In this document: in pieces, positions 25,693 through 38,337 of the stretch
Numbering within the stretch: the first letter of the stretch is position 1
How the letters are laid out: every line of letters starts with the position of its first letter
IMG/VR virus record: IMGVR_UViG_3300030005_000139
Span: 1-38,337 of that record
DNA from: a virus
Lineage: Duplodnaviria; Caudoviricetes
DNA length: 38,337 nt
Strand: one strand, 5' to 3'
Notes under the pieces: generated by a model
Database searches by the model: none
Told to the model about the DNA's origin: nothing
Seen by the model: only the letters and a program-made list of their open reading frames with translations
Made by a program: the position numbers and the translations under genes

Positions 25693-26349
25693 ATGAGTAT
25701 TGCCAGCCGGCTCAGGTTGACCCTTAACGAGCGAGGTATGTCAGAAAGCGAGTTGTCACGTCGCTCAAAGGTTCCTCAGCCGACCATTAACAGAATCCTT
25801 TCCGGGGAGAGCTCCAGCCCAAGGCGACCCACCATTGACCCTCTCGCAAAAGCCCTAGGAATTCCCCCGGATTGGCTTATGTTTGGTGGCGCTGATGATG
25901 AAAGCGGAAGCCCTAGCAGCGAGGATTATGCTTTGATCCCCCAGGTTACCGCGCGCGGGAGTTCAGGCAGTGGTTACTTAAATGACCACATTGAAGTATG
26001 TGGCGAGCTTGCTTTTAAAAAAGACTGGCTAGCTCGCATGGGTCTTAAAGAAAATAATCTCAGCGTCATGTACAACTCAGGCGAAAGCAATTGGCCTACA
26101 CTTTCAGATGGCGAAGTTCTTCTAGTCGATAAGGCTCAGACATCTCCAAAAGATGGAAAAATGTATGCAATGAGCAATGCCGACGGAGAAATTATTATAA
26201 AAAGACTTATTCGTGATTTGATGGGCGGCTGGCTAATCAGGTCCGACAGCCAAGACAAGACAAGGTATCCAGACATGCCTGTATCTGACGAAGCGCTCAG
26301 AACCTTAGAGATTTTTGGCAGAGTGGTGTGGAGGGGTGGAATCATATGA
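25693..26349 (+). CDS. cI: CI-like repressor (XRE HTH plus S24 peptidase)
   Basis: SELSRRSKVPQPTINRILSG HTH; GESNWPTL and IIKRL catalytic Ser/Lys; FGRVVW. Confidence 0.93.
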   Translation: MSIASRLRLTLNERGMSESELSRRSKVPQPTINRILSGESSSPRRPTIDPLAKALGIPPDWLMFGGADDESGSPSSEDYALIPQVTARGSSGSGYLNDHIEVCGELAFKKDWLARMGLKENNLSVMYNSGESNWPTLSDGEVLLVDKAQTSPKDGKMYAMSNADGEIIIKRLIRDLMGGWLIRSDSQDKTRYPDMPVSDEALRTLEIFGRVVWRGGII

Positions 26350-26370: not shown

Positions 26371-26856
26371 ATGAACACTTTAATAGGGATATTTCACATA
26401 TTAGGGTCTTCCCTGGCGTGGCTCCTTATAGGGTTTTTAGGGGCTTTACTTTTATCTCGGATATCTACAAAAATCATTTCCGAAGATGAACAAATTATCG
26501 CTAATACTCTCGGGGTAAAGGTTAAAGAGCTAAAAAACACAGACCCTAGAGTTGTCGAAAAGGCAGTGAATGATAGGTTCAGTTCAGATCTTTTCTGCAA
26601 CAGGCTTTCTGATTTTTTTGGGTCGATATCCACGCTGATTAAGTTTTCAGGGCTGCTTGTTCAGATTTGTGTTCTGGGCGCCTGCTTATGGGAGACCTAT
26701 CAGGAAGGGATTGAAAGTGCAGTCTATTTTTGGCTGATGCCTGCCTCATCTATCCTCATAGGATTTTTATCTTTTTCCATGTTTTGGCTTTGTAGGCTGC
26801 TCACTGGGAGATACCCTGGGCAATCTAGGGCAATTCGGGCAGCGGCACGGACGTAA
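26371..26856 (+). CDS. AT-rich membrane protein in the immunity region (161 aa, about 3 TM)
   Basis: GGAG RBS; hydrophobic segments; visibly lower GC; between cI and its terminator. Confidence 0.75.
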   Translation: MNTLIGIFHILGSSLAWLLIGFLGALLLSRISTKIISEDEQIIANTLGVKVKELKNTDPRVVEKAVNDRFSSDLFCNRLSDFFGSISTLIKFSGLLVQICVLGACLWETYQEGIESAVYFWLMPASSILIGFLSFSMFWLCRLLTGRYPGQSRAIRAAART

Positions 26857-26923: not shown

Positions 26924-26965
26924 ATGCAAAAACGTATTGACGGTGATTATGAGGATTCGTATAGT
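26924..26965 (+). promoter_or_regulatory. PL promoter with two OL operators
   Basis: TTGACG (26937)-17 nt-TATAGT (26960); ATG-N6-CGTAT at 26924-26937 and 26949-26962, the same consensus as OR. Confidence 0.85.
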
Positions 26966-30303: not shown

Positions 30304-31044
30304 ATGTCCGCAACCAACGTAGCCACAATAAAGCCCAAGAGCCTGCCTGCACGGATGGCCGAGCGTTTCGGCGTTGACCCTCAAGAAATGATGGCAACCC
30401 TCAAGGCCACAGCGTTCAAGGGCCAGGTCACCGACGCACAGATGCAGGCACTCATGATCGTTGCTGATCAGTACGGCCTGAACCCGTGGACCAAAGAGAT
30501 CTACGCGTTCCCGGACAAAGGCGGAATTGTCCCGGTTGTCGGCGTTGATGGATGGGCCCGGATCATCAACGAGAACCCAGCCTTCGACGGCATGGAGTTC
30601 TCGATGGACAAGGACGGCACCGAGTGCACCTGCAAGATCTACCGCAAGGACCGTGGGCACGCGATTAGCACCACTGAGTACATGGCTGAGTGCAAGCGCG
30701 GCACACAGCCCTGGCAGTCCCACCCACGCCGCATGCTGCGCCACAAGGCAATGATCCAGTGCGCCCGACTGGCGTTCGGCTTTGCCGGCATCTACGACCA
30801 GGACGAGGCCGAGCGGATTGTCACCAACGACGCCCAGGCACCATCTGTAGACGCAGGCCCTGCCATCGAGACCATCCGTAACGCCCAGTCTATGGAAGAG
30901 CTACAAGCGGCCTTCACGGCTGCCTGGAAGGAACTTCCGACCGAGCGCGCCGCACTCACCAAGGCGAAGGACGAGCGCAAGAAAGAGCTGTCCGAGCCGG
31001 TCGAAGCAGAGTTTGAGGAGGTGCCAGATGCAACAGGGGAGTGA
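30304..31044 (+). CDS. bet: Red-beta single-strand annealing recombinase
   Basis: QYGLNPWTKEIYAFPDKGGIVPVVGVDGWARIIN...PWQSHPRRMLRHKAMIQCARLAFGFAGIYD.DEAERI. Confidence 0.95.
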   Translation: MSATNVATIKPKSLPARMAERFGVDPQEMMATLKATAFKGQVTDAQMQALMIVADQYGLNPWTKEIYAFPDKGGIVPVVGVDGWARIINENPAFDGMEFSMDKDGTECTCKIYRKDRGHAISTTEYMAECKRGTQPWQSHPRRMLRHKAMIQCARLAFGFAGIYDQDEAERIVTNDAQAPSVDAGPAIETIRNAQSMEELQAAFTAAWKELPTERAALTKAKDERKKELSEPVEAEFEEVPDATGE

Positions 31045-31657
31045 TGAGTGGATTCGCGCCCGACTGGGCAAGGTCACAGCCAGCAAGGTCAAGGACGTGA
31101 TGACCAAGGGTCGCGGCAAGGAGCCATCGGCCACGCGCCGCAACTACATGATGGACCTGCTCTGTGAGCGCCTGACGGGCAACCAGAGCGGTCCCGACCT
31201 TTCCCGCAACCCTGCGATAATACGCGGCATCGAGCGTGAGCCAGTGGCCCGCTCGGCATACGAGATCGACAAAGGGTTGATGATTCAGGAAGTCGGCTTG
31301 ATCGCACATCCGGTTATTGCCGGGTTCGCAGCATCACCTGATGGCGTTGTCGGTACCGACGGCCTGATCGAGATCAAATGCCCGCATACGGCCACCCACA
31401 TCTCAGTGATCCAGGCCGGGCGCCACGACAGCCAGTACGAGTGGCAGATGCTCGCGCAGATGGCCTGCACCGGGCGCGCCTGGGTCGACTTCGTGAGTTT
31501 CGACGACCGCATGCCTGAAGAACTGCAGTACGCCTGCTTCCGCTTCGAGCGCGACGAAAAGCGCATTACCGAGATGGAAGCCGAAATCACGGCCTTCCTG
31601 GAAGAACTGGCCGACCTTGAGAAGGAAATGCGGGAGCGCATGAGGAGTGCAGCATGA
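31028..31657 (+). CDS. exo: Lambda exonuclease / YqaJ-family nuclease
   Basis: QGSDEW..ARLGKVTAS; SPDG; IEIKCP; Y.WQ...QM. Confidence 0.92.
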   Translation: MQQGSDEWIRARLGKVTASKVKDVMTKGRGKEPSATRRNYMMDLLCERLTGNQSGPDLSRNPAIIRGIEREPVARSAYEIDKGLMIQEVGLIAHPVIAGFAASPDGVVGTDGLIEIKCPHTATHISVIQAGRHDSQYEWQMLAQMACTGRAWVDFVSFDDRMPEELQYACFRFERDEKRITEMEAEITAFLEELADLEKEMRERMRSAA

Positions 31658-32370
31658 ACGCCTACATCAGCAACGATCTGAACATGGTCAAGGAGCTAGA
31701 CCCAATACGCCACGCACTGGCTCTGCAGATGGAAGAGTTCTTAAGCCATGACGGGGTTATCCAAGTAATCCCGGCTGGTCGCGGCCTCTTCAGCCCCATG
31801 ACCTTCAACAGCGAAACCATAGCGCCTTCAGCCACGTCGCCCCATGCAGCAAAGCGCGATCTGTCGGTAAAGCTGCGCAAGTCGCAAAAAGCCGAAGCGG
31901 TAGAGGCAGAGATCGCCGAGAAGATGAGGGCCTACCACGACAAAGGCGTGGTAGCCGCGGCCAAGGATCTACACATCAGCACCAGGCGCGCCAATCACAT
32001 CGCAGCGCAGTACGGCATCAAGTTTTCCTGCCGGGTATCGCTAGCATCCCGCCAGGAGGATCTGGCTTTGGTGCCAAAGATCCGCGCCATGATTATTGAG
32101 GGCCTAACTCAGGACCAAATGTGCGCCAGGCTGGATATCGGCCGCACAACGCTGAAGCGGGTCGCTGGGCAGAACGGCTTGAAGTTCCGCACCCAGTCCG
32201 GTCGCGCGAAGGACGCATCGCTGGTTGAGCGTATCAAGGCTATCAGGGATATCGGCTGCACCCGGGCAGCCTGCGCCAGACAACTCGATATCAACCCAAA
32301 AGTGTTGCTGCGCCTGATCGCCGAGTACGAAATTGATTTCCCAGTGAGAGAAACATCGGGGGCCGCATGA
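31654..32370 (+). CDS. Protein with three tandem HTH-like repeats (238 aa)
   Basis: AAKDLHISTRRANHIAAQYGIKF / CARLDIGRTTLKRVAGQNGLKF / CARQLDINPKVLLRLIAEYEIDF. Confidence 0.7.
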   Translation: MNAYISNDLNMVKELDPIRHALALQMEEFLSHDGVIQVIPAGRGLFSPMTFNSETIAPSATSPHAAKRDLSVKLRKSQKAEAVEAEIAEKMRAYHDKGVVAAAKDLHISTRRANHIAAQYGIKFSCRVSLASRQEDLALVPKIRAMIIEGLTQDQMCARLDIGRTTLKRVAGQNGLKFRTQSGRAKDASLVERIKAIRDIGCTRAACARQLDINPKVLLRLIAEYEIDFPVRETSGAA

Positions 32371-32894: not shown

Positions 32895-33506
32895 ATGAAA
32901 GCCAAGACAATCTCCATCGAGGCTGACGGCCTCAAGATCAAAGGTACTGCTGAACGCATGATTCAACTGCTCGCGGCGAGCGTGTTCGTGCAGGCTCTAC
33001 CACCAGCCGCTAATGTTCAGCCGGTGGTGGTGTCGGCCGTTCCTGAGATCGGCAAGCCGTGGCCGGGCCAAGGCGGCATCAATGGCGGCTACATCGAAGC
33101 CCGCGGCGATGTCCCAGCCCACTACCTGATCTTCGCCGCCAAGGACGTTGGCGACCACGAGTGGGGTGGTCGTGGCGTAGAGGTGAAAGGCCTGAGCAAA
33201 ACCGACGGCTATACCAACACCCAGGTGCTGATCGGAAATGACGACGAGCGCAAGTATCCCGCTGCCGACGCGTGCGCCGAGTACCAGGCCGATGGTCACC
33301 ACGACTTCTACCTGCCGGCCGCTGCCGAGCTGTACCAAGGCTGGCTGAATTGCCCCGAGGTGTTCGCCCAGGACTGCTACTACTGGTCATCCACGCAGCG
33401 CTCCGCCCACTTCGCATTCCACATGCACTTCGTTGGTGGCATTCAGTACGGCGGCGGCAAGTACGACGAGCTCCGCGTCCGCCCCGTCCGCAGATTGTTT
33501 ATTTGA
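32895..33506 (+). CDS. DGR target protein 1 (DUF1566/CLec-like, 203 aa)
   Basis: DFYLPAAAEL...YYWSSTQ...RVRPVR; VR1 at the 3' end. Confidence 0.9.
   Translation: MKAKTISIEADGLKIKGTAERMIQLLAASVFVQALPPAANVQPVVVSAVPEIGKPWPGQGGINGGYIEARGDVPAHYLIFAAKDVGDHEWGGRGVEVKGLSKTDGYTNTQVLIGNDDERKYPAADACAEYQADGHHDFYLPAAAELYQGWLNCPEVFAQDCYYWSSTQRSAHFAFHMHFVGGIQYGGGKYDELRVRPVRRLFI
33394..33496 (+). repeat. DGR variable repeat VR1
   Basis: 103-nt gapless match to TR 34779-34881; 16 mismatches, all at TR adenines. Confidence 0.96.
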
Positions 33507-33536
33507 TCCTTCAATAATTCGTTCTTGATCGGCCCG

Positions 33537-33557
33537 AGGCGCAGCAGCGCCTTTTTT
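33537..33557 (+). promoter_or_regulatory. Hairpin downstream of VR1 (DGR target hairpin and/or intrinsic terminator)
   Basis: AGGCGC-AGCA-GCGCCT followed by TTTTT. Confidence 0.6.
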
Positions 33558-33582
33558 GTTGCCTTCTGAAAGAGGAAAGACC

Positions 33583-34203
33583 ATGTCCGCAACTGCTCAA
33601 GCAGCACCAGCACAACCTATCCCGGCCATCGGCCAAGCCTACGGCGGCGGTTTCGTCACCGGCATCACTCGCGACCCGGCAACCGGCAAGCGCTCTCTGC
33701 ACATCACCGCCGGCGCAGAGCATGAACTGCTCGGCAAGTGGGGTGAGTACGGCAAGAAGATCGAAGGCGCCGACAGCTTCACCGACAGCCTGGCCAACAC
33801 CCAGGCCATGGCGGCGGCCGGCAGTGATCTGGCGGCGAAGGTGCTGGCACTGAACATTGACGGCCTCACCGACTGGGCGATCCCCGCGCGCGACGTGCAG
33901 GAGCTGCAGTATCGCCACTTCAAGCCGACCACCGAAGAGAACTGGGCCGGTCGCCGCGATGGTGACAACCCGAACAGTGTCCCGATCGGCCAGCTCTACA
34001 GCGAAAAGGCTCCGCTGCAAACCGTGCACGCGGACTTCCAGGAAGGGGGCGCCGAAGCATTCCGCGACACCTGGTACTGGTCGAGTTCGCAGCGCTCCGC
34101 CTACCACGCGTTCTACATGTACTTCGATGATGGCACTCAGCTCAACCACGCCAAGGGCCACGAGCTCCGCGTCCGCCCCGTCCGCAGTGAATTTCTTGAT
34201 TAA
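33583..34203 (+). CDS. DGR target protein 2 (DUF1566/CLec-like, 206 aa)
   Basis: GAGG RBS; DWAIPARDVQEL...WYWSSSQ...RVRPVR; VR2 at the 3' end. Confidence 0.9.
   Translation: MSATAQAAPAQPIPAIGQAYGGGFVTGITRDPATGKRSLHITAGAEHELLGKWGEYGKKIEGADSFTDSLANTQAMAAAGSDLAAKVLALNIDGLTDWAIPARDVQELQYRHFKPTTEENWAGRRDGDNPNSVPIGQLYSEKAPLQTVHADFQEGGAEAFRDTWYWSSSQRSAYHAFYMYFDDGTQLNHAKGHELRVRPVRSEFLD
34087..34187 (+). repeat. DGR variable repeat VR2
   Basis: 101-nt gapless match to TR 34778-34878; 13 mismatches, all at TR adenines. Confidence 0.96.
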
Positions 34204-34217
34204 TTCATTCCTTTAAT

Positions 34218-34252
34218 CCGGCCGCCTGCGGCCGGTTGCTCTTGGAGAGCAA
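34218..34252 (+). promoter_or_regulatory. Two adjacent hairpins after VR2
   Basis: CCGGCCG-CCTG-CGGCCGG (34218-34235); TTGCTCT-TGG-AGAGCAA (34236-34252) covering the avd RBS. Confidence 0.6.
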
Positions 34253-34257
34253 GCCTT

Positions 34258-34614
34258 ATGGCAATGCACACGGAATTGCAGATCTACGCCGCGGCGATGG
34301 GCCTGCTGCACATGGCCACGAACCTGACCCGCAACATCCCCCGCGACCTGAAGCAGCAGCTCGGGAAGCGCGTTATCGATGAGTGCATCGATGTCTTGAT
34401 GCTGATTGCCCGGGCCAACTCGACCCGGGAACGGCGCCCCTACTTGGTCGACCTGGTCGAAAAGGTCCAGGTGATAGAGTTCCTGATGCGGCTCTTCAAG
34501 GAGAACCGCTTCATCAGTGTGAGTCAGCATGCCAAGGCTATCGAGGTGACCACCTCAATTGGCAAGCAGGCGAACGCCTGGAAACGCTCCACCCCAACCG
34601 TGCCCGCCACCTGA
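34258..34614 (+). CDS. avd: Accessory variability determinant (Avd-like four-helix bundle)
   Basis: 118 aa helical; L.IY...IPRDLK..LG..V...IARAN...IGKQ..AW; lies between target and TR. Confidence 0.88.
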   Translation: MAMHTELQIYAAAMGLLHMATNLTRNIPRDLKQQLGKRVIDECIDVLMLIARANSTRERRPYLVDLVEKVQVIEFLMRLFKENRFISVSQHAKAIEVTTSIGKQANAWKRSTPTVPAT

Positions 34615-34777
34615 GAGCCAAGGCTTTCTGGTCTGTGCGAATTGAATCTGGTCGTGCCGCTGGCCCCTGGGCCACCGCTATGCGCACAAGAGATACCGCC
34701 GGTCTAAAGCGTCCGCGTAGGTCTCGCGCAGTTTCCGGTCTGAGTATTCGGCCCGGCGACGTAGATAGCACGATAGG

Positions 34778-34881
34778 TCGCAGCGCTCCGCCAACAACGC
34801 ATTCAACATGAACTTCGATGATGGCAATCAGAACAACAACGACAAGAACAACGAGCTCCGCGTCCGCCCCGTCCGCAGATT
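34778..34881 (+). ncRNA. DGR template repeat (TR)
   Basis: A-rich master copy with 9 AAC and 1 AAT codons in the VR frame; shared GC-rich 3' element CGCGTCCGCCCCGTCCGCAG. Confidence 0.95.
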
Positions 34882-35978
34882 CAACCTTGGGGCCCTACCC
34901 GTTCAGCGACTTGGTTCAGGCTTACTACGACTGCCGGCGCTCCAAGCGCAACAGCGACAGCGCGCTGGCTTTCGAAATGGACCTCGAACGGAACCTGATC
35001 CAGCTACACGACGACCTGGTAACCGGCACTTACCGGCCAGGCCGCTCTATCTGCTTCGTGGTCACCCGACCGAAAGCCCGGGAAGTATGGGCAGCAGCAT
35101 TTCGGGATCGAGTGGCGCACCACCTGCTCTACAACCACATCGGTCCACGGATCGAGAGCAGCTTCATAGCGGACAGCTGCGCCTGTATCAAAGGTCGCGG
35201 CACCTTGTACGCAGCAAAGCGCCTTGAGTCTAAGATCCGCAGTGCCAGTGAGAACTGGTCGAATCCGGTCTTCTACCTGAAGCTCGACCTGGCAAACTTC
35301 TTCGTCGCCATAGACAAGCAGGTACTGCGCAAGCAACTGGCCGACCGGATCACCGAACCCTGGTGGCTGGCCCTGGCCGAGCAGATACTCATGCACGACC
35401 CACGCGAAGACTACGAGGTGCGCAGTCCGGCCCATCTGTTCAACCGGGTACCGCAGCACAAACGACTCACCGCGCAGCCAGCTCACTTAGGGCTGCCGAT
35501 CGGCAACCTGTCCTCGCAGTTCTTCGCCAACGTCTACCTCGACGCCCTGGACCAGTTCGCCAAACACCAACTCAAGGCCAAGCACTACATCCGCTACGTC
35601 GATGACTTCGTGTTCCTGCATGAGTCGCCGCAGCAGCTCAACCAATGGCTGGCCCAGGTCGAAGCGTTCCTGCCCAGCTTGGGCGCCAGGCTCAACCCGG
35701 CCAAGACGATCCTGCAACCCGTGGATCGCGGCGTGGACTTCGTCGGGCACGTGATCAAGCCATGGCGCCGCACTACCCGCAAGCGATCCCTAGCTCAGGC
35801 ACTGAAGCGAACCGCTACGGCGCCGGCCGAGGATCTGCGCGAGACCGCCAACAGCTACTTCGGCCTGCTCAGCCAGGCCAGCCACAGCCAAAAGGACCGT
35901 GCCGCCCTGGCCAATGTCGTGCTCAAGCGCGGCAACACGGTGAACGCAGCGCTAACCAAGACCTACCCGAAGAAATAA
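34818..35978 (+). CDS. DGR reverse transcriptase (start may instead be TTG at 34887)
   Basis: FRDRVAHH, LKLDLANFF, GLPIGNLSSQFFANVYL, YIRYVDDF, GVDFVG; no maturase or endonuclease extension. Confidence 0.96.
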   Translation: MMAIRTTTTRTTSSASAPSADSTLGPYPFSDLVQAYYDCRRSKRNSDSALAFEMDLERNLIQLHDDLVTGTYRPGRSICFVVTRPKAREVWAAAFRDRVAHHLLYNHIGPRIESSFIADSCACIKGRGTLYAAKRLESKIRSASENWSNPVFYLKLDLANFFVAIDKQVLRKQLADRITEPWWLALAEQILMHDPREDYEVRSPAHLFNRVPQHKRLTAQPAHLGLPIGNLSSQFFANVYLDALDQFAKHQLKAKHYIRYVDDFVFLHESPQQLNQWLAQVEAFLPSLGARLNPAKTILQPVDRGVDFVGHVIKPWRRTTRKRSLAQALKRTATAPAEDLRETANSYFGLLSQASHSQKDRAALANVVLKRGNTVNAALTKTYPKK

Positions 35979-35997: not shown

Positions 35998-36675
35998 ATG
36001 GACATGACATACGGAAGCGTTTGCAGCGGCATCGAAGCCGCGACCCAAGCCTGGCACCCGCTGGGCATGCGCGCCGCCTGGTTCGCCGAGATTGAGCCGT
36101 TCCCCTCGGCGGTCCTGGCTCACCACTACCCCGACGTGCCGAACCACGGCTACATGACCAAGCTGGCTGCCCTGGTGCTGGCCGGCAAGATCCCGGCGCC
36201 GGACGTGTTGGTCGGCGGCACCCCGTGCCAGGCCTTCAGCGTTGTCGGTATGCGCGAAGGCCTCACCGACCCGCGCGGCGCCCTCACCATCAAATACGTG
36301 GAGCTTGCAGATGCAGTTGACTATGTTCGCGCCGGCCAGCGAAAGCCCGCCAGCGTTATCGTCTGGGAGAACGTCCCCGGCGTCCTCAGCGACAAAGGGA
36401 ACGCCTTCGGATGCTTTCTTGGCGCGCTTGCTGGGGAAGACTGCGAGCTGCAGCCTCCAGGGAAAAAATGGCAGGACGCTGGTTGTGTGTATGGACCCAA
36501 AAGAGCAATCGCGTGGCGGGTCCTGGACGCCCAATATTTCGGCCTGCCCCAACGACGCCGTCGTGTGTTCGTTGTCGCAAGTGCTCGAGACGGGTTCGAT
36601 CCCACCGAGGTACTTTTTGAGCGCGAAGGCATGCGCCGGGATACTGCGCCGCGCCGAGGCGAGAGGCAAGACGTT
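35998..36675 (+). pseudogene. C5 cytosine DNA methyltransferase, probably 3'-truncated (frame runs on to 37038)
   Basis: SVCSGIEA, GGTPCQAFS, WENVPG, QRRRRVF present; no C-terminal GNS-type motif X; the downstream frame overlaps two other genes. Confidence 0.7.
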
Positions 36676-36707
36676 AGGCATACAGAAGCGCATCGAGGTG
36701 GAACGCC

Positions 36708-36887
36708 ATGGCCACTGCTGAGCTGCACGGCCGGAGCATTACCCCGTTTGAGCAGGGCTTCCTGGCTTTCATCAAGGGCCTGGGAATCAAAGAGAACCCA
36801 TTCGACGGGGATAAAACCCCCGCATCTAACTATCGCTGGACCGCCGGCTGGAACAAAGCACAGCGTGAAGCAGGGAGAAAGTTATGA
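36708..36887 (+). CDS. Rmf/CrpP-like small protein (59 aa, below the ORF-track cutoff)
   Basis: GAGG RBS; FEQGFLAFIKG....NPF.......RWTAGW; ATGA overlap with xis. Confidence 0.65.
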   Translation: MATAELHGRSITPFEQGFLAFIKGLGIKENPFDGDKTPASNYRWTAGWNKAQREAGRKL

Positions 36888-37285
36888 GTGCAGAACTTGC
36901 AGCGCTGCCGCGGTTCATCCGGGCGAAGCACGCGCCCGCCTACCTGGGCATGTGTCGAGCTATTTTCGACGGCACAGTCCGCCCGCACGTCCGCGAATTC
37001 CCCATTGGAAAACAGGGCGTTGCCTTCGACCGCCATGAGCTGGATCAGTGGGCGGACGCCTATATCGAGGCCATGGCAATTGAAAAGGCCGCGAATCAGG
37101 ACAACAATCGCCCCCGCAGCGAGCGCCAGGGCACGAAGCAAGGAGAAACGCCGTGGCCCAAAAAGCAATCACCGGCCTCCAGCAAATGCCGAACGGCATC
37201 TGGAAGATCGACAAAAAATACAGAGGAGAGCGAATTCAAGAGAGTACTGGCACTTGTGACCGCGCCGAAGCGGAGCAGTACCTGA
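36884..37285 (+). CDS. xis: Excisionase-like winged-helix protein
   Basis: PRFIRAKHAPAYLGMCR..F...VRP...FDRHELDQWAD; precedes and overlaps int. Confidence 0.7.
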   Translation: MSAELAALPRFIRAKHAPAYLGMCRAIFDGTVRPHVREFPIGKQGVAFDRHELDQWADAYIEAMAIEKAANQDNNRPRSERQGTKQGETPWPKKQSPASSKCRTASGRSTKNTEESEFKRVLALVTAPKRSST

Positions 37286-38337
37286 TCCACAAACTGGAGA
37301 AGTTGCGCCAGCAGAAGGTGTACGGCATTCGCCGTGTAAGGACCTGGAGAGAGGCGGCGACTCGCTTTCTGCTGGAAGTGAAGGATCAAGCGTCCATTCA
37401 TATTTCGGCGACCTATATGGAGCAGCTCGACCCTTTCATAGGGGATATGCCCCTGACCCATATCGATGACGATGCACTTGCCCCATACGTTCGCTCGAAG
37501 CTGAACCCGGTGACAGGTAAGCCCGTAACGAATCGGACGGTGAACATTGCGCTTCAGCGAGTCATCAGGGTTTTGAACCTCTGCGCTCGGAAATGGCGGG
37601 ACGAGGAGCGGCGCCCTTTGCTTGATGTGGTGCCGATGATTTCTCTGCTGGATGAGAAGACAAACAGCCGGAAGCCCTACCCGCTTTCATGGGAAGAGCA
37701 GTCGATCCTGTTCGCCGAGCTTCCGGCGCACCTTCAGACCATGGCAATGTTCAAGGTCAATACGGGGTGCCGGGAGCAGGAAGTTTGCAAGCTTCAGTGG
37801 AATTGGGAGATTGCGGTGCCCGAACTGGGGACAAGCGTATTTCTGATACCAGCAGGGTTTGGGGGAAGAAGCGCCAGATCTGGCGTGAAGAACCGAGACG
37901 AGCGTCTGGTCGTGATGAATGACGTTGCCAAGTCGGTGATCGAGAAGCAGCGCGGTAAGCATCCGCTCTATGTGTTCCCGTTTGGCAAGCCAGATGGCGA
38001 GGGGAATGAAACGACGGTCCACCGCATGAATGACTCGGCCTGGAAGAAGGCACGGATTCGAGCGGCGAAGAAATGGCAGGAGAAGTTCTTGCGGCCGGCA
38101 CATGACGGCTTTGCCAGGATCCGCATTCACGATCTGAAGCACACCTTTGGGAGAAGGCTGCGTGCTGCAGGTGTGACAGAGGAAGATCGGAAAGCGCTGC
38201 TCGGCCACAAGAACGGAAGCATCACCAGCCACTACTCTGCAGCGGAACTGGATCAGCTTATTGCGGCGGCAAACAAAGTATCAGTAACCGACTCGCGCGC
38301 ACCAGCGCTGACGATTTTGAAAAGGAGAGAAGCATGA
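37153..38337 (+). CDS. int: Tyrosine integrase
   Basis: TGCREQE (R), VKN (K), HDLKH, LLGH, TSHY (Y); GGAG RBS with GTG start. Confidence 0.93.
   Translation: MAQKAITGLQQMPNGIWKIDKKYRGERIQESTGTCDRAEAEQYLIHKLEKLRQQKVYGIRRVRTWREAATRFLLEVKDQASIHISATYMEQLDPFIGDMPLTHIDDDALAPYVRSKLNPVTGKPVTNRTVNIALQRVIRVLNLCARKWRDEERRPLLDVVPMISLLDEKTNSRKPYPLSWEEQSILFAELPAHLQTMAMFKVNTGCREQEVCKLQWNWEIAVPELGTSVFLIPAGFGGRSARSGVKNRDERLVVMNDVAKSVIEKQRGKHPLYVFPFGKPDGEGNETTVHRMNDSAWKKARIRAAKKWQEKFLRPAHDGFARIRIHDLKHTFGRRLRAAGVTEEDRKALLGHKNGSITSHYSAAELDQLIAAANKVSVTDSRAPALTILKRREA

Follow-up and report, generated by a model that had tools for sequence, protein, structure and literature searches.

The 38,337-base virus record IMGVR_UViG_3300030005_000139, analysed here at its full length and called the window, carries gene modules on both strands, and positions 32895 to 35978 of its plus strand hold a complete diversity-generating retroelement (DGR) with two target genes. 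Open reading frame (ORF) and repeat analysis confirmed the order given in a preliminary description of the sequence, namely target 1, target 2, avd, template repeat (TR) and reverse transcriptase (RT), with every frame open; all features of the cassette lie on the plus strand. Target 1 (32895..33506, 203 aa, class a of the two scaffold classes described below) joins a short N-terminal module, predicted to be beta-beta-alpha, to an Lcl_C/C-type-lectin (CLec)-like domain that contains the variable repeat (VR) VR1 (33394..33496). Target 2 (33583..34203, 206 aa, class b) is a stand-alone Lcl_C/CLec-like domain with an internal insertion and contains VR2 (34087..34187). Matches to Pfam Lcl_C (DUF1566) reach 24.2 bits for target 1 (E 4e-5) and 29.2 bits for target 2 (E 1e-6), both under the cut-off of 34.9 bits, and both proteins also match phrog_4245. 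The avd accessory gene (34258..34614) scores 46.5 bits against Pfam bAvd (cut-off 40) and matches phrog_3206; its match to NCBIfam DivGenRetAVD is below cut-off. The RT frame, open over 34818..35978, matches RVT_1 and phrog_1423 (E 5.8e-117) and shows YVDD and GxxxSQ motifs, the latter a mark of DGR RTs; its start is uncertain, with an in-frame TTG at 34887.

Two kinds of element were absent from the preliminary description. Between avd and the TR (about 34778..34881, with 10 AAY codons) sits an Rfam RT-15 structured RNA (34598..34780), which matches the full model at 161.1 bits against a gathering threshold of 82 and is likely the 5′ part of the DGR RNA. Hairpins, moreover, follow both VRs, each of which has a constant, G/C-rich 3′ end resembling an initiation of mutagenic homing (IMH) site, from 33468 in VR1 and from 34162 in VR2. 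The hairpin after target 1 (33537..33552) has a 6 bp stem followed by a T-run and may serve in target recognition, as a terminator, or both; the one after target 2 (34218..34235) has a 7 bp stem, all G/C. Among related loci, collected as described below, hairpins were found after the avd-proximal VR in 117 of 139 (3/139 in shuffles), after the distal VR in 37 of 133, and after the TR in 2 of 154.

Alignment of the TR with VR1 and VR2 gave 16 and 13 mismatches, respectively, every one at a TR adenine; a 14th mismatch of this kind in VR2 is the first base beyond the shared end. Over a 100-nt TR both VRs match at 69/69 non-A positions, and since the next best site on either strand of the window reaches 37/69, the match is not due to chance and no tail gene of the window is a DGR target. 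The substitutions in the two VRs had been called largely different, which understates the case: ten sites are altered in both, and the new base differs in 10/10. These observations support independent rewriting of VR1 and VR2 by the DGR through separate retrohoming events. The same specificity holds across 249 distinct VRs from the 118 related loci whose TR aligns gap-free to that of the window: 3535 of 3644 mismatches fall at A, TR adenines are changed in 45% of cases as against 0.6% for other bases, and there is one stop codon. The proposed repertoire of 15^10 variants per target (ten AAY codons, 15 residues each, no stop) is right as a ceiling. In the natural VRs Pro, Ala, Cys and Arg each make up less than 1% of residues at AAY codons, and a hand estimate from natural frequencies of about 10 effective residues per codon brings the number nearer to 1e10.

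Profile scans with Pfam and PHROG showed that the minus strand encodes a P22-like portal, a coat protein, tail adaptors and ejection proteins and the plus strand cI, Bet, an exonuclease, methylases and an integrase, and relatives of the window RT at 85-95% identity lie nearly all in Pseudomonas genomes. The window is thus a P22-like, temperate Pseudomonas phage with the DGR in its early (PL) arm. This arm is marked at its start by a cI-like repressor (25693..26349, +; HTH_3 and Peptidase_S24, phrog_4) and ends with a tyrosine integrase (37153..38337, +; Pfam, PHROG). The cassette lies between that integrase and a Bet/RecT-like annealing protein with a YqaJ exonuclease (30307..31657, +; Pfam, PHROG), on the strand shared with both, downstream of cI and opposite to the head and tail genes. 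A candidate PL promoter (26937..26965, +) is a consensus match only, at 10 of 12 sigma-70 positions, and is weak by itself, three sigma-70-like sites having been found against 4.5 expected by chance; the same scan of the window gave no further promoter-like site near the cassette.

A family of early-arm cassettes

Relatives of the RT numbered 134 in genome_contigs and 299 in viral_contigs, and the best 80 of each were used to assemble 160 loci, some of which are one element sampled twice; a search of plasmids for the RT gave no match at E 1e-80. The cassette, treated as near-unique in the preliminary description, thus belongs to a widespread family, and one with published precedents. Among 142 loci with at least 2.5 kb of upstream sequence, 102 have two VRs, 32 three, one four, four a single VR and three none. 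Adjacent targets have a median length of about 200 aa, and remote targets range from 137 to 278 aa. An early-arm marker is present in 99 of 109 loci with long flanks, with the integrase downstream on the same strand in 67, and the gene order is lambdoid: cI and recombination genes precede the cassette and methylases and the integrase follow it, all on one strand. The commonest neighbour family, phrog_5439 (about 103 aa, of unknown function; L120:5698-6006 and relatives), accompanies the cassette in 66 loci and is not among the PHROG matches of the window.

Structural genes do not appear to be targeted in this family. Of 64 recurring neighbour families, not one had its best match to a head or tail protein; 137 long, rarer neighbour ORFs lay outside that scan, so that some loci may have tail genes at their far edge. 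Searching 36 whole phage records for the constant VR end gave three copies in 22, four in 12 and no match in two, and in the 34 matched records all copies share the strand of the TR and precede it by no more than about 9 kb, none of them in a tail gene. The same arm position is occupied in the P22-like podovirus of the window, in Cruim01, which has a tape measure and no sheath in the part seen and presumably a long non-contractile tail, and in Magia and QDWS, which have sheath or baseplate genes. The targets were said to lack a fibre domain or signal peptide, and this held: a Pfam scan found no fibre domain, a simple pattern combined with a hydropathy test found no lipobox in any of 301 targets, and a hydrophobic window of at least 1.8 occurred in 15 of 301, the best values for the window targets being 1.48 and 1.22. 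The view that they are small, early and non-structural proteins draws good support from their position in phages of three tail types and from a homolog in phage PA5oct, described below.

Target pairing and an orphan target in lytic jumbo phages

Clustering of the scaffolds separated class a, with its N-terminal module (predicted two strands and a helix), from class b. One target of each class is present in 108 of 108 loci that have both adjacent targets in the four Pseudomonas-type clusters, in the order a-b in 80, as in the window, and b-a in 28; these 108 represent two related lineages and not 108 independent events, and betaproteobacterial loci have other class combinations. The pairing suggests complementary roles for the two targets, and we make no claim that they bind each other. 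Natural b-a fusion proteins occur among the long homologs (P0125 and P0165), with a VR-like end on both domains in P0125. A third target follows cI at a distance of 0.75-3.8 kb in 11 of 11 loci fetched, and in Magia the extra target is the first gene of the PL arm after the immunity region. Copies without a neighbouring RT occur as well. The orphan D3 orf68 (class b, L164:8908-9468) is the first annotated gene after cI; in NC_002484 its VR is two bases short and the C-terminus shifted, and phi_D3 and PMG1 match in one piece. Medea1 (L166:8256-9564) retains an a+b pair with no avd or RT alongside.

A single class-b gene, recognized by homology, is also present in nine records of lytic Wroclawvirus phages, PA5oct, MIJ3, Paride, Ettore, Deifobo, Cassandra, Callisto, 30-2 and 30-3 (L161:2929-3420; L168-L175:1429-1920); several of these jumbo phage records annotate the strand opposite to it. 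Its GC content is 56-58%, compared with 39% for the 6.4-kb PA5oct locus, its scaffold is 92-95% identical to a DGR target of Haboob, a temperate phage of P. aeruginosa, and the PA5oct VR differs from the Haboob TR at 16 sites, 15 of them adenines. To judge by these sequences, the orphan appears to have been captured from temperate P. aeruginosa phages. No RT was found in the five jumbo genomes searched, a search that had no positive control, and a collection-wide RT search that picked up Haboob and others listed none of these five. The IMH-like site occurs once only in each of the five. Ongoing diversification in trans was considered and is rejected for now: the orphan VRs of the nine records form four allele classes, shared by distant isolates. 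Retention without an RT in lytic phages suggests that the protein is useful in purely lytic growth.

In PA5oct the orphan is gp104 (EST35_0104), encoded in the terminal repeat and 36% identical to target 2 of the window. The accessible portion of PMC7318152 describes most genes of the block gp34-gp105, which includes gp104, as early, and names only three as structural. As far as that portion goes, gp104 is not in the virion list, where locus-ordered Table S5 runs from 0051 to 0123. By analogy, this sole experimental evidence in hand points to an early, non-virion protein that would be useful without lysogeny.

Fold, recent rewriting and selection

The targets are predicted to adopt a C-type-lectin-like fold with the VR as a variable surface. 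The model of target 2 has a predicted local distance difference test score (pLDDT) of 79, with low confidence in the VR, and its best solved matches are the Legionella Lcl-CTD (PDB 8Q4E; Z 7.8, root-mean-square deviation 3.3 over 106 residues) and, equal to it at Z 7.8, a Bacteroides fimbrial protein. Lower matches are C-type lectin folds that include TvpA, TaqVP and Mtd at Z 3.4-3.5 (Mtd 3.4). A profile search against solved structures also returned Lcl-CTD (E 2e-8), and a Foldseek search against the PDB gave nothing at E<=0.001. For target 1, AlphaFold with 119 close homologs reached a pLDDT of 49 with only residues 1-34 confident; in the ESM Atlas it gave only Lcl_C clusters, and its N-terminal 48 residues gave no usable match. 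The class-b profile has matches in 17,590 representatives, and in long homologs the domain is frequently present in tandem copies.

Near-identical cassettes (L002/L093, L002/L094 and L114/L134) differ nearly only at VR adenine sites: L002 and L093 have no differences outside the VRs and 19 in VR2, all 19 at adenine sites, and L114 and L134 have two outside and 36 inside. The family has therefore been active recently. Both target scaffolds are under purifying selection, with medians of 0.08-0.13 for the ratio of nonsynonymous to synonymous substitution rates (dN/dS; 109-914 non-independent pairs per class). On the variable surface, residue spectra differ among AAC codons of equal downstream context (p 1e-33), codon 5 being held to Tyr, Asp or Asn, which suggests selection there as well. 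The variable residues are net acidic (mean -1.15), a property that fits a protein ligand better than DNA.

Two further signs of selection were considered and rejected. Retention of K22, Q1, Q17 and E25 and the bias toward Tyr, Gly, Ser and Asp cannot be read in this way because an A before G is left unmutated even where its change would be synonymous (0/55), two Ser outcomes differ 16-fold (231 vs 14), and an effect of a +1 G on the RT has been published (bioRxiv 2025.03.24.644984, in the part available). A tendency of the two VRs of a locus to converge on identical residues was likewise rejected, mean identity being 1.26 compared with 1.43 in shuffles (50 loci). The two positions of adenine dinucleotides are strongly non-independent in the 249 VRs: when the second A has become C the first is kept in 147 of 169 cases, and when it has become G the first base is either A or G. 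This pattern offers a natural measure of the bias of DGR RTs.

Neighbouring genes

Directly after cI, positions 26371-26856 give a weak match to a SieA-like superinfection-exclusion protein (phrog_7745, E 5e-4). An HTH-repeat (helix-turn-helix) protein at 31654-32370 (phrog_9129), with a weak N-terminal match below cut-off to the RNA polymerase-binding domain of SutA (E 4e-4), has relatives near the cassette in many loci and is possibly a phage transcription factor. Downstream of the RT, a C-5 methylase ORF (35998-37038) matches the Pfam model over its first half only and is overlapped in another frame by a second ORF (36242-36721) with no PHROG match; the pair may be a two-polypeptide methylase, presumably of the M.EcoHK31I kind, or a broken gene. 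The gene beside int that had been called xis belongs to phrog_13517, a family of unknown function. Among the structural genes, a tail fibre (1753-2967, -) has an Mtd N-terminal domain (Mtd_N) and no VR.

Discussion

The element described here is a real, intact DGR, and it represents a common and partly noticed variant that is defined by paired, early and apparently non-virion targets. It resembles the BPP-1 DGR (mtd-avd-TR-brt) in its target-avd-TR-RT order, adenine-specific rewriting, AAY-rich TR and CLec-type target. BPP-1 carries the one phage DGR studied by experiment, which diversifies a tail adhesin, as the available part of PMC8008677 relates. In contrast, the window family has two or three targets, all small stand-alone proteins encoded in the early arm and without a fibre domain, and no tail receptor-binding protein was seen to be targeted, the tail genes of the window and of the 34 matched records being free of VRs. 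Magia (NC_070954), Cruim01, Haboob, LPPA56, phPA-G, SC_8_H2H8 and QDWS carry the same RT family at 67-90% identity, and the Magia group shares the PL-arm position and short lectin-fold targets, one of which, in Magia, is at the start of the arm. The Magia announcement (PMC7883833) reported a DGR with short-ORF targets and suggested a role in adaptation or host range, but it is silent on early-arm position, on pairing and on function.

Surveys provide further precedents. In the accessible text of Wu 2018 (PMC5758913), DUF1566 targets account for 14% of DGRs, about half of them short and stand-alone, and two-target cassettes for 13%; the DUF1566-type targets of its category d (CLec2), such as Legionella LdtA, are similar to ours, and the match of our targets to DUF1566 at the VR is weak, as that text describes such matches. 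LdtA, however, is a surface lipoprotein, whereas targets of the window family lack a lipobox. From what is available of the Roux survey (bioRxiv 2020.04.01.020958), Pseudomonas is among the three commonest DGR genera, and clade 3 / PC_00009, in which the window family would be placed, has prophage members with uncharacterised targets. In Vibrio and Stenotrophomonas, according to Yan 2019 (PMC6642488, in part), DUF1566 targets occur in tandem. The consulted sections of Benler 2021 (PMC8008677) describe a phage DGR target that is not structural and belongs to a defence-related island: the second target of Quimbyvirus lies away from structural genes and near methyltransferases, and a role in phage-host conflict was proposed. 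Quimbyvirus is a Bacteroidetes phage whose other target is structural, whereas all targets of the window family are in the early arm. DGR-based immunity has been proposed in general (PMC10053308, partial text). We found no paper that tests these proteins, sets out the a+b rule or mentions the jumbo phage orphan, although subscription journals or survey supplements may list some of the elements. New here are the pairing rule in Pseudomonas, the third targets just after cI and the orphan target in lytic jumbo phages.

The targets are probably early proteins that do not enter the virion, and their synthesis would take place in the cytoplasm at an early stage of infection or of induction. We envisage that avd, TR and RT are co-transcribed with the targets from PL, so that rewriting would take place during lytic growth. 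By analogy with BPP-1, Avd-RT would make error-prone copies of the RNA that contains the TR, the errors falling at adenines, and each VR would be replaced by the cDNA at its IMH and hairpin. Progeny would then carry new alleles and a repressed lysogen would keep one; a single stable allele among lysogens would fit such control. Selection at the next infection would favour those alleles whose product binds a useful intracellular protein. On present sequence data a role in adaptive anti-defence or host takeover is plausible, and our preferred, though tentative, reading is that the targets would act in the cytoplasm, binding variable defence proteins, whether of the host or of rival prophages, and neutralising them. 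A fuller version, in which lambdoid phages of Pseudomonas and related Proteobacteria would run an antibody-like intracellular counter-immune repertoire from a fixed a+b pair of freed fibre-tip domains, re-randomised each lytic cycle, that disables defence proteins of host or prophage, with lytic jumbo phages having stolen winning alleles, is possible but doubtful.

Several observations weigh against an intracellular anti-defence role or the evidence on which it draws. The family loci are related, and counts overstate their independence. The PA5oct evidence concerns a homolog with 36% identity to target 2, the early designation in the available part of PMC7318152 covers "most" genes of the block and does not single out gp104, and absence from mass spectrometry data says little about a protein of low copy number. 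RT bias accounts for at least part of the Tyr/Asp/Gly/Ser bias and of the retention of A before G, in line with the part of bioRxiv 2025.03.24.644984 cited above. In seven peat-metagenome runs that hold the window phage, two of them possibly its own source, contigs show the window's own VR alleles wherever the listed long pieces cover the VRs, and no VR variants were seen, contigs being a form of data that hides rare variants; a word search of runs found no RNA run that held >5% of the words. No PADLOC profile matches the targets, PADLOC being a library of defence and not of anti-defence. Finally, the class-b domain forms the C-terminal tip of tail-fibre or virion-like proteins in 14 of 51 long homologs scanned, and the targets thus look like freed fibre-tip binding domains. 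The closest solved folds are surface adhesins, the Lcl-CTD being an extracellular glycosaminoglycan-binding adhesin on a collagen-like protein and not a phage early protein (PDB 8Q4E, in the information available), so that on the models a surface ligand would be the ancestral expectation. This fibre-tip origin is the main evidence for those alternatives in which the ligand is on a surface.

A weapon of phage against phage, in which the targets would bind and block proteins of a superinfecting or co-infecting phage, is an unlikely alternative with some attractions: the phage is temperate, the cassette is near the weak SieA-like gene (phrog_7745, E 5e-4), hypervariability suits a fast-changing viral ligand, and a general proposal of variable cytosolic sensors exists (PMC10053308, partial text). 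The PL-arm position, however, would imply repression in the lysogen, as judged from lambdoid phages, no separate promoter-like site was found near the cassette, the targets have no effector domain, and strictly lytic jumbo phages keep a target.

Early arms and the terminal repeat of jumbo phages are typical takeover regions, and small early Pseudomonas phage proteins that block pilus motors exist. The targets might accordingly bind a strain-variable cytoplasmic or inner-membrane machine outside defence, such as a pilus motor, O-antigen synthesis or a regulator. Core host machines vary slowly, however, and do not call for some 1e10 variants on two or three proteins, and we regard this as improbable.

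Two alternatives place the ligand on a surface, and we consider each of them quite improbable. As accessory virion adhesins, the targets would be free fibre-tip domains that attach to the tail or head and adjust adsorption in the manner of Mtd in BPP-1. The same domain does tip fibre-like proteins, often in tandem, fold matches in BFVD include fibres with collagen repeats and peptidase-S74 domains, and host range is what the Magia paper suggests (PMC7883833); yet the targets are encoded opposite to all structural genes, in the same position across three tail types, and have no anchor domain, the Mtd_N fibre of the window lacks a VR, and gp104 is not in the PA5oct virion list. Alternatively, soluble lectin-like proteins released at lysis could cover receptors on debris or on cells nearby and in this way protect progeny or exclude competitors. 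An adhesin-type fold with no export signal and absence from the virion would suit this, but the position is early and not late, and no record ties the targets to the tail module. A near-neutral passenger in a recombination-rich arm, suggested by patchy presence, by RT-less pairs or singles in Medea1, D3 and others and by one allele across several metagenomes, is very improbable indeed given the low dN/dS, one stop in 249 VRs, fixed a+b pairing and retention in jumbo phages.

Surveys treat viral DGR targets as mostly structural, and the window family is both large and early-arm. It is present in cultured phages (Cruim01, Haboob and Magia, with orphans in D3, PA5oct and Paride), which makes the identity of the ligand a directly testable question. 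Should the targets prove to counter defence systems, these phages would possess a programmable, adaptive form of anti-immunity, and the targets themselves would constitute a compact cytoplasmic binder scaffold equipped with its own mutator.

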